Source of the DNA: a virus
Reading direction: 5' to 3' (one strand)
Virus record (IMG/VR): IMGVR_UViG_3300011507_000009
Span: 1-6,858 of that record
DNA length: 6,858 nt
The stretch's first letter is position 1; each line of letters begins with the position of its first letter. This document shows positions 5,705 through 6,231 of this stretch, piece by piece. The translations under genes and the position numbers were made by a program. The notes under the pieces are model-generated. The model saw nothing but the letters and a program-made list of their open reading frames with translations. It was not told where the DNA came from and ran no database searches.

Positions 5705-5959
5705 TCACTCGTACAGGTCAGACTGTCCGGTTTTCTCAAGAAGCTGAGCAGCAGAGGCGCGGGCCTGCTCGATGATGTGGCGAAGCCGACGAATCTCGGT
5801 TCGCTGGCTGTCGATGACTTCGTGCAGCTCCTGATTCTTGCGGTGCAGGTCGATTGCATCGAATGCGGCCATTCTGAATGCCTTGCTGGCAACCTTCTGG
5901 CCGTAATGCATCTTGAGGCGGTCGCCTTCCTCGTTCGTGACGTCGAATTTGATCAGCAT
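5705..5959 (-). CDS. 84-aa protein: RHH-like N-terminus plus predicted coiled-coil C-terminus (Mnt-like architecture), function unknown
   Basis: It lies in the frame of track ORF 5705..6037, and the internal ATG 5959 has AAGGAA about 10 nt upstream. The sequence is MLIKFDVTNEEGDRLKMHYGQKVASKAFRMAAFDAIDLHRKNQELHEVIDSQRTEIRRLRHIIEQARASAAQLLEKTGQSDLYE. The region upstream of M27 in the track ORF is Arg-rich junk. Confidence 0.6.
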   Translation of the reverse strand: MLIKFDVTNEEGDRLKMHYGQKVASKAFRMAAFDAIDLHRKNQELHEVIDSQRTEIRRLRHIIEQARASAAQLLEKTGQSDLYE

Positions 5960-6015
5960 TTTAGTACCGTTCCTTTTGTCCTGGTTGGTTCCTCGACGAG
6001 GAAAACAGTACCAAA

Positions 6016-6231
6016 TCAATCTTCGCCGAGAGCCCAATTCAGGCCGTCACGCAGAGCATAAGCAACAAGGCCATAACCAACATTCGACTCAATGTGAACG
6101 CCGCCATCAGGGCCAATGATGCGGAACTCATAACTCCCATTGTCGCCGTCCCCGAACACCTCAACGACGTGATGACCATCGACGTCGATACGGTGAAAGG
6201 TAGTAACGTCATCAGTAAACTTAAGTACCAT
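6016..6231 (-). CDS. 71-aa acidic, beta-rich protein of unknown function
   Basis: It lies in the frame of track ORF 6016..6309, and the internal ATG 6231 has a strong AGGAG 7 nt upstream. The sequence is MVLKFTDDVTTFHRIDVDGHHVVEVFGDGDNGSYEFRIIGPDGGVHIESNVGYGLVAYALRDGLNWALGED. Confidence 0.6.
   Translation of the reverse strand: MVLKFTDDVTTFHRIDVDGHHVVEVFGDGDNGSYEFRIIGPDGGVHIESNVGYGLVAYALRDGLNWALGED

Follow-up and report, generated by a model that had tools for sequence, protein, structure and literature searches.

Taken together, the comparative sequence analyses and structure predictions presented here suggest that ORF84, a small conserved gene of Pseudomonas and Stutzerimonas filamentous phages, encodes a ribbon-helix-helix (RHH)/coiled-coil regulator which may control its own expression through a phased array of GGTACC palindromes, and that its neighbor ORF71 is captured cargo. 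We consider this the best explanation of the locus and put its probability at roughly 0.45. Whatever the function, ORF84 is the conserved component of the locus and ORF71 an add-on, and we regard the array, which was absent from the initial annotation, as the locus's most informative feature.

The window, i.e. the whole 6,858-nucleotide stretch that was analyzed, is a permuted circular genome in which the zot-like (gene I) ORF (phrog_197) is split across the ends, with its 3' part at 6471..6858 on the minus strand and the remainder at positions 1-~925. Both genes were found on the minus strand at the lengths first reported and with the Shine-Dalgarno (SD) sequences first reported: ORF71 at 6016..6231 (71 aa; start ATG 6231-6229, stop TGA 6018-6016), with AGGAG at 6239..6243, 7 nt from its ATG; and ORF84, separated from it by 54 nt, at 5705..5959 (84 aa; start ATG 5959-5957, stop 5707-5705), with AAGGAA at 5970..5975, 10 nt from its ATG (both SDs on the minus strand). 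The two start codons lie inside CTAAAATG and the N-termini read MVLKFTDDVT (ORF71) and MLIKFDVT (ORF84), in agreement with the identical initiation context and similar N-termini noted before. The program-made ORF list also holds longer forms of 97 aa (ATG 6309) and 110 aa (TTG 6037), and the upstream extension WYHFPxRGTNLVxRKGTK seen in homologues is a translated conserved DNA motif (TGGTACCATTT ... GGTACC), the invariant ORF84 start across homologues being MLIKF with its SD. Both are genuine genes under strong purifying selection, as the comparison across related phages shows (dN/dS about 0.04-0.2 for the two): by Nei-Gojobori the ORF71 values are 0.04-0.14, with 27 synonymous and 7 non-synonymous differences between the window and blackswan219-6, and those of ORF84 are 0.04-0.21. 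The pair sits, as described earlier, between the dif-like attP hairpin region (6355-6465) and the control region of Rep and ORF65 (5124..5321, plus strand; phrog_5219, unknown function), the sole plus-strand gene of the window, which is divergent from Rep in an rstR-like position and convergent with ORF84. We likewise agree that neither protein belongs to the virion or core inovirus set, since no Pfam, NCBIfam or PADLOC family was found and PHROGs returned only phrog_8031 for ORF84, with no match of either protein to coat, adsorption, assembly, ssb or Rep families in Pfam or PHROGs. The core genes are elsewhere, with Rep (PF05144/PF05155), a G5P-like gene and zot located by family match, and the coat and pIII/pVI-like genes placed only through the corresponding annotated features of blackswan219-6.

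ORF84 had been called an orphan, a description that we now replace: it is a clade-wide conserved gene (phrog_8031, unknown function, without a Pfam family) with 14 close clusters of relatives; a profile search extends the family to 135 representative clusters, almost all of them ~85 aa long and aligned end to end. In about 57 inovirus/prophage loci of Pseudomonas/Stutzerimonas, to whose search a 15-sequence sub-family alignment contributed, the gene lies directly past a dif-like attP, and blackswan219-6 was the sole tblastn match among 50,697 phage records. From its MLIKF strand-like N-terminus the protein passes through a short helix, a TG-x-x-[TV]ASKAF segment and a long coiled-coil helix to a C-terminal ARSAAxLLEKTGQxDL tail, and the family invariants are M-L-[IV]-K, T-G, [TV]-A-S-K-A and A-R-x-A-A..L-L-E...Q-x-D-L. 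The tail is conserved to the same degree as the N-terminus. Autoregulation alone is insufficient to explain retention of the gene; the strong conservation of the tail implies a further partner or function.

In front of ORF71 lies the array, four GGTAC(C) sites within 6224..6352 at centre-to-centre distances of 44, 34 and 44 bp: site 1 (TGGTACCA, 6345-6352), site 2 (6301-6308), site 3 (TGGTACCAT, 6267-6274) and site 4 (GGTACT, 6224-6229), the last overlapping the ATG-GTA-C of ORF71. The sequence runs as TTTGGTACCATTT at sites 1 and 3 and in inverse orientation at sites 2 and 4. Degenerate copies of the last two precede ORF84 on the minus strand: site 3' (TTTGGTACTG, 6007..6012) is 44 nt upstream of site 4' and within direct repeat D3 (5989-6013 versus 6328-6352, 80% identical), and site 4' (GGTACT, 5963..5968) stands 3 nt before the ORF84 ATG, where relatives have GGTACC at -9. 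TGGTAC occurs 13 times in the window against 1.56 expected (0/200 shuffles). Nearly every ORF84-family locus carries four GGTACC sites spaced 44/33-34/44, with the last 3-17 nt before the ATG, and the linkage of array and gene holds even in sub-families that share just ~40% identity. When 2.9 million IMG/VR contigs were scanned for the exact pattern, the array turned up in 30, of which 29 are inovirus-sized, and in 29/29 of these an ORF84-family ORF adjoins it; the 30th (L090) is an unrelated element with a dense GGTACC iteron cluster. In most ~7-kb genomes the array accounts for all four GGTACC sites of the genome, and some phages have additional GGTACC pairs, at a distance of 44 or 55 bp, around the 3' end of ORF84.

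The array goes with the ORF84 gene, whatever the type of Rep or of repressor. Array and ORF84 are kept while the Rep differs (a Phage_CRI Rep in the window, an unrelated Rep_1-type Rep in blackswan219-6), and the repressor position is held by an HTH_3 protein in loci L003 and L004 and by ORF65 in the window. Co-occurrence with unrelated Rep families rules out a Rep-specific origin, and a main-repressor operator was also rejected, given that the repressor-position genes differ and that the Rep/ORF65 control region has no GGTACC sites. That ORF84 is itself the binder is harder to establish, as the GGTACC core never varies across loci and so offers no protein-DNA co-variation to prove ORF84 and array a cognate pair; a host factor could bind. 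We therefore weighed an account in which the array regulates ORF84 but is occupied by some other protein, either a transcription factor of the host or a second protein of the phage, and ORF84 is a non-DNA-binding coiled-coil effector, with antirepressor, superinfection-exclusion factor and host-protein modulator acting through the LLEKTGQGDL tail all possible roles. A core that stays invariant over ~40%-identical sub-families is what one expects of a host-factor site, and the dense GGTACC repeats of the unrelated L090, the sub-threshold nature of the RHH assignment and the equal conservation of the ORF84 tail all fit such an account. However, the residues best placed for DNA contact in an RHH (K4, S25, K26 and the TG turn) are as invariant as the tail, and related inoviruses that lack the gene also lack the array, as in blackswan219-1, which has only a distant ORF84 paralogue. 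Moreover, we know of no Pseudomonas regulator with a TGGTACCA box, which also counts against a host factor, and on balance we take this account seriously while holding it to be unlikely.

All site spacings are near-multiples of 11 bp (33/34, 44, 55). In duplex DNA the sites would then share one face of the helix, a layout suggestive of binding that is cooperative or looped. The same quantization, which points to duplex DNA, speaks against a quite different explanation, namely that the four sites form a cis-acting single-stranded DNA element (a minus-strand origin or packaging hairpins) or a 5'-UTR RNA structure to which ORF84 is a mere neighbor. Sites 1/2 and 3/4 are indeed inverted 13-mers with a 9-13-bp stem per pair, sequences folded singly give stable structures (-15 to -28 kcal/mol), and the array adjoins the attP hairpin in a non-coding region of an ssDNA phage. 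Yet in RNAalifold no pairs survive beyond the six invariant ones, the covariation term being -0.03, and flank-pair counts are no better than in shuffled controls (covariation 42/500, percentage paired 92/500). The flanks vary independently, their complementarity is lost in divergent sub-families, the unit is duplicated ahead of each cassette gene, and an Rfam search gave no match. With no covariation, equal shuffle controls and an empty Rfam result, we rejected an RNA or ssDNA hairpin as the main explanation of the array and see little chance that this is what the four sites are.

Returning to ORF84 as the binder of the array, a rationale for autoregulation comes from site 3, which resembles an extended -10 element with TTGCTG 17 nt upstream. 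TG-n-TACCAT is present at site 3 in about 30/34 loci, and 15/34 have a TTG-type -35 located 16-17 nt upstream of the element. The candidate is sub-consensus (about 7/12 plus TG), and a sigma-70 scan of 5000-6858 found no promoter; what we propose is a putative weak extended -10 promoter overlapping the array. Autoregulation is proposed because of this overlap: ORF84 would be a small cytoplasmic regulator, with an RHH-like N-terminal DNA-binding segment, a ~45-residue coiled coil and the conserved tail, whose dimers, oligomerized through coiled coil and tail, may occupy the GGTACC palindromes upstream of their own gene and in this way control the attP-proximal transcription unit. ORF71, whose capture between sites 2 and 3 brought in duplicated sites 3-4, would then depend on the array-controlled promoter for its expression. 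The message is probably bicistronic, covering ORF71 and ORF84, since the second sites 3-4 have decayed to GGTACT.

The evidence that ORF71 came as a cassette is direct. Break points located by blastn delimit a 274-bp segment at 6019..6292 (minus strand) that is missing from three otherwise 94-96% identical relatives (L014, L016 and L020). The segment contains ORF71 with its SD, preceded by site 3 and with site 4 across the ATG; its point of insertion is between sites 2 and 3, and it thus brought a site 3-4 copy of its own. This site 3-4 unit is duplicated ahead of each cassette gene, and in L045 and L039 the ORF71 slot is occupied by an unrelated gene of ~75-85 aa, so that the suggestion that the attP-adjacent slot carries cargo is well supported by the break points and by the exchange of its contents. 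The two genes had also been read as a two-gene module, possibly a toxin-antitoxin-like pair or a lysogeny switch, and here our data point the other way. ORF71 occurs in only 6 of about 57 ORF84 loci, ORF84 stood without it in about 45 of the about 51 loci first examined, and the ORF71 family (7 close clusters of relatives, 109 by profile) is spread over plasmids, prophages and other mobile elements, with relatives on Pseudomonas conjugative plasmids and further elements that lack ORF84, among them 27 Pseudomonas/Xanthomonas plasmids with no ORF84 neighbor. Because ORF84 is alone in most loci and ORF71 lives on plasmids without it, a toxin-antitoxin pair or an obligate two-protein switch is unlikely. 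Functional coupling could still be argued from the shared strand and the short distance that make co-transcription probable, from an RHH-like protein beside a small partner (the classic antitoxin-toxin layout) and from the six loci that keep both genes together. Against it are the lack of any fixed pairing, the replacement of ORF71 in L045 and L039, the uncoupled identities in blackswan219-6 (93% in ORF71, 44% in ORF84) and the absence of a PADLOC or toxin family match, and we give such coupling hardly any credence. The common start context is no sign of kinship and arises from the duplicated regulatory unit (GGTAC sites 3-4), as the cassette brought its own copy. Paralogy through the N-termini was rejected as well: the xKFT strand of ORF71 is ancestral in its own plasmid family (LKYT/LHYT), and plasmid relatives without any kinship to ORF84 keep LK[FY]T. 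By these distributions ORF71 is an optional cargo gene, independently mobile and of unknown function.

The predicted fold of ORF71 has five beta strands and a C-terminal helix, in keeping with the earlier view of a beta-like protein with no recognizable family: there was no match in Pfam, NCBIfam, PHROGs or PADLOC, no toxin family, and no significant Foldseek match of the model in PDB or BFVD. The nearest likeness is to UPF0339/YegP/HVO_2922, which share the beta-beta-beta-alpha core and the pattern VEVFxD...Y.FR....G......S..GY......L..GL, whereas ORF71 has two extra N-terminal strands. These signals are weak though recurrent, and none is significant (PDB 6q2z at E 0.34 by profile and at rank 9, E 1.2, by Foldseek; NF041908 against the plasmid homologue P0026 at E 0.17). 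DUF1508 (PF07411) matched none of 50 ORF71-family members and hhalign against E. coli YegP was non-significant, and we rejected a YegP-like assignment.

For ORF84, the AlphaFold2 (AF2) monomer predicts helices at residues 9-19 and 26-83, the second of 58 residues, with pLDDT >90 in the coiled coil and low confidence over residues 1-30, of which 1-8 are extended at pLDDT about 54. Some homologues have Pro at position 36, which fits a break after a short helix B. Foldseek with this model gave no significant match in PDB or BFVD. Pfam RHH families were not matched by the N-terminal 40 aa of ORF84 or of four close or moderate relatives even at E<=10; among ten distant family members, four matched PF22513 (FitA-like_RHH) with E 1.4e-4 to 0.055 and 14-22 bits (cut-off 27), always over the strand and helix A and covering 18/39 profile positions. 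Against PDB, one N-terminal profile had as its best match 7e4j, a 44-aa antitoxin (E 0.052), two other N-terminal profiles had no match, and the full-length profile retrieved coiled coils only. No RHH family reached its curated threshold for the ORF84 family, and the window protein itself had no RHH match. Homology to Arc, Mnt or CopG was rejected, hhalign being non-significant (for Mnt, E about 0.2 (0.22) over 11 columns with the family profile), and Pfam gave no match to the Repressor_Mnt C-terminal domain, which leaves the resemblance to Mnt one of architecture. Of the original reading of ORF84 as an Mnt-like RHH protein, the shape therefore remains plausible, by the short N-terminal segment, the long helix and the sub-threshold FitA-like matches, but kinship with Mnt or Arc is not demonstrable. 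The modeled shape can fairly be called an RHH joined to a coiled coil, in the manner of Mnt, and the protein is probably a DNA-binding regulator.

The attP region itself (6355..6465) consists of two inverted dif-like sites able to form a CTXphi-type forked hairpin in ssDNA. The first (6355-6385) reads TCGCATAAT-CCGCCG-TTATGTTA and the second (6429-6465), on the other strand, TTCGCATAAT-CGAGGCTCGGCG-TTATGTT; the PAO1 dif sequence is from PMC2731167. In the L004 prophage, TTCGCATAATGTATATTATGTTAAAT lies directly past zot and a hybrid attL precedes the array, and the L008 prophage has an identical attL. Inverted dif-like sites in the phage, together with a prophage at the host dif and dif regenerated at one end, identify a CTXphi-type integrative element, and the prophage junctions thereby agree with the proposal that the genes adjoin a CTXphi-type attP. 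The order attP-array-ORF84 is conserved, with array and ORF84 forming the left end of the prophage next to attL, and about 8 bp separate the start of site 1 from the XerC-arm-like TCGCATAAT in the nearer dif-like site. Such proximity raises the idea that ORF84 and the array are an accessory module of Xer recombination, comparable to PepA/ArgR at cer/psi or to XafT of TLCphi, whose architectural action would favor or hinder strand exchange by XerCD or excision driven by FtsK, or would aid hairpin or synapse formation. The distant ORF84 paralogue found on the opposite side of attP in several relatives is compatible with this. So are two reports, in which CTX-I/TLCphi-type elements carry a lysogeny module of RstR, XafT and a dif-like attP (PMC12715192) and XerC-first sites rely on accessory proteins bound to flanking sequences (PMC9226527). 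On the other hand, ORF84 has no sequence or fold similarity to PepA or ArgR-type factors and is likened to XafT by position alone; the last site is tied to the ATG and duplicated before cassette genes, which points to expression control and not to recombination; and CTXphi-type integration, according to PMC9226527, requires no phage factor. We consider an accessory role improbable. Equally speculative is the fuller version in which the ORF84 family and its phased array constitute an unrecognized phage-encoded Xer accessory system, an RHH/coiled-coil protein assembled on the DNA beside attP/attL, that tunes the direction or efficiency of XerCD or shields the junction from FtsK, while the attP-proximal promoter reports the integrated or episomal state and the site 3-4 unit, with its ATG in site 4, serves as a portable cassette capturing cargo at a fixed register; this too we would hold improbable.

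In many Gram-negative bacteria, virulence and the plasticity of the genome are shaped by XerCD-exploiting inoviruses (IMEXs), whose lysogeny control is, to our knowledge, poorly understood outside Vibrio. Three things are defined by the locus described here. One is a family of small proteins, conserved and unannotated, that numbers about 135 clusters; another is a precise cis element (4 x GGTACC, 44/34/44 bp) next to the attP of Pseudomonas/Stutzerimonas filamentous phages; the third is a fixed insertion register that captures unrelated cargo genes. If ORF84 binds the array, the two would make up a compact new regulator-operator pair and may control Xer-mediated integration at a new level. ORF71 in turn flags a 109-cluster unannotated family of mobile-element proteins with relatives on clinical P. 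aeruginosa plasmids.

Among known regulators, Mnt is the RHH repressor of phage P22 with a C-terminal coiled-coil tetramerization domain. ORF84 is similar to Mnt/Arc in size (82-84 aa), in its N-terminal strand-helix-turn-helix pattern, in the G-x-x-V-x-S at the turn and in its C-terminal coiled coil, and, like them, it would presumably be a small phage protein that represses its own promoter region through short dyad operators. It differs in a coiled coil that is much longer and, in the AF2 model, runs on from helix B without a break, in its conserved C-terminal tail, which is absent from Mnt, and in having four separate 6-8-bp palindromes 33-44 bp apart where Mnt/Arc use one compact operator. 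FitA/VapB-type RHH antitoxins are the only families that recurred in the ORF84 searches, matching xLTIRNLDDELxxxLK in distant members, but ORF84 has no PIN or other toxin partner and is not consistently paired with any neighbor. The omega repressor of pSM19035 is likewise a small RHH regulator, with arrays of short direct and inverted repeats in promoter regions as its binding sites, although it binds contiguous 7-bp heptads and has no long coiled coil, unlike ORF84 with its widely spaced palindromes. An omega-like RHH protein, ORF13, is encoded at the genome end of the Pseudomonas filamentous phage PMBT54 and sets a precedent for an RHH regulator past the morphogenesis module of a Pseudomonas inovirus (PMC10534721); neither it nor omega showed a sequence relationship to ORF84 (tblastn, 50,697 phage records). 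With respect to the RstR, XafT and attP module, ORF84 bears no recognized relationship to XafT beyond its position next to attP, and the accessible parts of PMC12715192 and PMC9226527 make no mention of a phased four-site array beside attP. The module resembles this locus in its dif-like attP with a small regulator gene adjacent and in the oppositely oriented repressor-position gene beside Rep, and CTX-I/TLCphi-type IMEXs resemble it further in integration by host XerCD at dif, with dif regenerated at the right end (PMC12715192, PMC9226527).

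Our reading of the attP-proximal locus, to which we give a probability of roughly 0.45, is that ORF84 (84 aa, minus strand, 5959-5705) is a ribbon-helix-helix (RHH)-like coiled-coil DNA-binding regulator, which would occupy four GGTACC palindromes and thereby autoregulate a promoter that drives ORF84 and, in the window phage, the captured ORF71 cassette (71 aa, minus strand, 6231-6016). Judged by their sequences both are genuine genes, and all features described in the initial annotation are present, namely the reading frames, their Shine-Dalgarno sequences (AGGAG 7 nt ahead of the ORF71 ATG, AAGGAA 10 nt ahead of that of ORF84), the start context CTAAAATG at both ATGs and the N-termini MVLKFTDDVT and MLIKFDVT, respectively. 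The ORF71 family comprises 7 close clusters (109 by profile) and the ORF84 family 14 (135 representative clusters at 50% identity), with nearly all ORF84-family members ~85 aa long and aligning end to end. Pairwise dN/dS values of 0.04-0.14 for ORF71 and 0.04-0.21 for ORF84 reveal purifying selection on both. Longer database gene calls (WYHFPxRGTNLVxRKGTK-MLIKF...) were rejected as a translated conserved DNA motif, not protein. The initial observation is confirmed, and its interpretation is partly supported.

Absent from that account was the GGTACC array. The window contains 13 copies of TGGTAC where 1.56 are expected (0/200 shuffles), with matches concentrated at 6224-6352 and 5963-6012. ORF84-family loci carry four GGTACC sites, spaced 44, 33/34 and 44 bp from centre to centre. 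Counted from the attP side, TTTGGTACCATTT is the sequence of sites 1 and 3 and its inverse that of sites 2 and 4, and between the last site and the ATG lie 3 nt, or 6-17 nt in certain sub-families; this arrangement is kept in sub-families with only ~40% protein identity. An exact-pattern scan found the array in 30 IMG/VR contigs, 29 of them inovirus-sized, and in all 29 it adjoins an ORF84-family ORF. The remaining contig, L090 (11.6 kb), is viral and unrelated, with at least 14 GGTACC copies in ~250 bp (1840-2050) directly upstream of a 674-aa gene, primase/helicase-like to judge from its sequence and size alone, and this cluster looks like an iteron-type origin sharing the hexamer by chance. 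In the window the full array stands ahead of ORF71, shifted by 11 bp, with site 4 overlapping the start codon (AAA-ATG-GTA-CTT), and second, decayed sites 3-4 (GGTACT twice, 44 bp apart) precede ORF84; it is because sites 3-4 are duplicated (the 25-mer of direct repeat D3) that the two genes share their initiation context.

Array spacings lie near multiples of 11 bp (23, 33/34, 44, 55 and 68), a quantised pattern that reads as the signature of proteins on one face of duplex DNA and suggests that ORF84 oligomers might bind cooperatively or by looping, joined via their coiled coil and conserved tail. Some relatives have extra GGTACC pairs, 55 or 44 bp apart, immediately downstream of the ORF84-family gene (L034:1343/1398, L035:6098/6153, L037, L010:10258/10313, L013:7394/7438 and L073:2611-2833). 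Site 3 contains TG-n-TACCAT in ~30 of 34 non-redundant loci, with a TTG-type hexamer 16-17 nt upstream in 15/34, from which we infer that an overlapping extended -10 promoter is plausible; a simple sigma-70 scan found no promoter. As a hairpin the array is not demonstrable, with RNAalifold retaining only six invariant pairs and no covariation, flanks pairing no better than shuffles and no match in Rfam, and we consider it improbable that the palindromes serve as a single-strand origin, packaging signal or UTR structure. Two other associations were rejected: the array is not tied to Rep type, as the unrelated Rep proteins of the window (Phage_CRI) and blackswan219-6 (Rep_1-like) both occur in genomes that have it, nor to the gene in the repressor position, which is HTH_3 in L003 and L004 versus phrog_5219 in the window. 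The Rep/ORF65 control region contains no GGTACC.

The proposal that ORF71 and ORF84 form a two-gene module did not hold. ORF84 relatives occur in ~51 loci (tblastn, all fetched loci), of which just six have ORF71 as well (the window, L015, L017, L018, blackswan219-6 and L007). Loci L014, L016 and L020 lack exactly window 6019-6292, a 274-bp segment running from just downstream of site 2 to the ORF71 stop codon, and both flanks are 94-96% identical. The identities are also uncoupled, with blackswan219-6 93% identical to the window in ORF71 and 44% in ORF84. ORF71-family proteins (45-50% identity) are moreover encoded by 27 Pseudomonas/Xanthomonas plasmids (20 conjugative), in pLD209 just downstream of the mobC-relaxase genes, and the plasmid neighbourhoods examined contained no ORF84 neighbour. 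This uncoupling of distribution, slot and identities argues strongly against a toxin-antitoxin-like pair or obligate two-protein switch, which we regard as the least probable alternative, whereas the presence of the family on conjugative plasmids, in prophages and in a phage cargo slot marks ORF71 as a mobile accessory gene. As first described, its product appears beta-like and of no recognisable family: the AF2 model (pLDDT 79.5) has five strands and a C-terminal helix with no significant structural neighbour, and Pfam, NCBIfam, PHROG and PADLOC gave no match. Weak matches to UPF0339/HVO_2922/YegP recurred, never significantly, and the wider family conserves V.V.GDGDNGSYEW ... SDCGYG...ALRDGL.

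The slot between sites 2 and 3 is a cargo insertion point of fixed register. At the equivalent position L045 (6579-6902) and L039 (232-459) carry an unrelated ~75-85-aa gene (MVPD..LRIRS..GSDSLA..RLLDFLRGLY..GSWS.DDQD) with the ORF84-family gene directly downstream; in L045 site 4 contains the cassette ATG (ATG-GTA-CC) and sites 3-4 recur ahead of the ORF84-family gene, and in L039 the stretch between the two genes is free of GGTAC sites. L039 (100-1372), L038, L040 and L041 encode two ORF84-family paralogues, which share ~39% and ~41% identity with ORF84. One lies downstream of the dif-like attP sites, and its ATG is immediately preceded by a recognisable GGTAC array; the other, upstream of those sites, follows the cassette gene, which itself has degenerate sites ahead of it. 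Either the layout is hybrid or tandem, or the unit has genuinely been duplicated.

The window is a complete filamentous-phage genome of 6858 nt, circularly permuted since the zot-like gene I, which runs off the window start and ends at 6471, spans both ends (1-925 and 6471-6858). Its minus-strand genes run from Rep (Phage_CRI + G2P_X_C, 5011-3749) through a G5P-like ssb, coat genes and a pIII-like gene (2664-1237) to a pVI-like gene and zot. In the pIII-like gene the N-terminal half falls in a low-GC patch (0.42 versus ~0.56; 2200-2600), possibly a receptor-binding domain acquired by exchange, and a long Gly-rich linker (GGGDT/GDGSG, 1482-1895) is encoded as well. The sole plus-strand gene, ORF65 (phrog_5219, function unknown, 5124-5321), is separated from the convergent ORF84 by a 383-bp spacer (5322-5704; GC 0.64, several GC hairpins) with the genome's strongest GC skew (+0.21); terminators and/or the plus-strand origin may lie in this spacer. 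In GenBank, the window phage comes closest to two uncultured 'blackswan' inoviruses, between which its genome is mosaic, its structural/zot module (37-3081) being ~89% identical to blackswan219-6 and its Rep/ssb module (3171-5013) ~86% to blackswan219-1; the Rep proteins of these two phages are unrelated. Closer relatives are IMG/VR contigs only, and prophages of related elements are present in Stutzerimonas, Pseudomonas and Phytopseudomonas genomes.

Between zot and the array, immediately ahead of site 1, stands an inverted pair of dif-like sites at 6355-6385 and 6429-6465 (inverted repeats I6 and I12). The L004 prophage has a perfect dif, TTCGCATAATGTATATTATGTTAAAT, after zot and a hybrid attL ahead of array and ORF84 (L004 stretches 8420-8450 and 1240-1345), and L008 (9755-9870) has the same attL; the dif of P. 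aeruginosa PAO1 is GATTCGCATAATGTATATTATGTTAAAT (PMC2731167). In related prophages the element sits at host dif, and a perfect dif has been restored behind zot. These sites and junctions bear out the suggested position next to a CTXphi-type attP and indicate, at the sequence level, a CTXphi-type XerCD-dependent IMEX of Pseudomonas/Stutzerimonas, in which array, ORF71 where present, and ORF84 make up the prophage left end. Such adjacency would suit an accessory system of ORF84 and array for Xer recombination at attP/attL; with the array also held in register to the ATG, we think this rather unlikely. Distant paralogues with E-values of 1e-4 to 1e-7 against the ORF84 profile (..LYAPGR..DAV...DYP.L..EVR.LR..LD.E...FDARLEALQ.ACRAILDL) occur at L088:722-1075, L089:26-307, L080, L083, L031:7646-7906 and L002 (blackswan219-1):5290-5766. 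In L088 and L089, where positions were checked, the GGTACC array follows shortly after the paralogue, and in blackswan219-1 the paralogue overlaps the end of zot; in such phages related small coiled-coil genes would flank attP on both sides.

The ORF84-family consensus is MLVKIxDxDDxLVExLKxxTGxxTASKAFxxAAxxYxxL-(coiled coil)-IEGARSAAALLLEKTGQGDLF, most conserved at M1-L2-[IV]3-K4, T19-G20, [TV]23-A-S-K-A27 and A66-R67..A70..L73-L74..Q79.D81-L82. The AF2 model of ORF84 (14-sequence alignment) has a helix at 9-19 and a single long helix at 26-83, very confident from ~residue 35, with residues 1-30 ill-defined, which fits an N-terminus that would fold only in a dimer; a proline at position 36 of some homologues points to a short helix B followed by a break. 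Distant members open with xTLTLRLDD or xLTIRNLDDEL, a classic RHH opening, 4/10 match PF22513 FitA-like_RHH below threshold, and one N-terminal profile matches the 44-aa antitoxin 7e4j (E 0.052). The other N-terminal profiles found nothing, N-terminal fragments had no match in Pfam, the model none in Foldseek, and hhalign against Arc, Mnt and CopG was negative. Of the proposed Mnt-like fold, 'RHH plus coiled coil' stands as the best description of the architecture, and family membership is not established. It is therefore conceivable, if unlikely, that another (host) factor binds the array and ORF84 is a coiled-coil effector; we rank this first among the alternatives, ahead of the Xer accessory, the single-strand structure and the coupled pair.

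The locus is probably an uncharacterised small regulator-operator unit of a conventional kind with a cargo cassette, interestingly placed beside attP. Our literature search returned no account of the ORF84 family, the GGTACC array or filamentous phages of P. stutzeri-group hosts. Closest to ORF84 in architecture are the Mnt/Arc and omega-type RHH repressors, and the Pseudomonas inovirus PMBT54 has an omega-like RHH gene at its genome end (PMC10534721). Closest in genomic logic is the lysogeny module of RstR, XafT and a dif-like attP in Vibrio IMEXs (PMC12715192, PMC9226527), and ORF65 is divergent from Rep, as is rstR.
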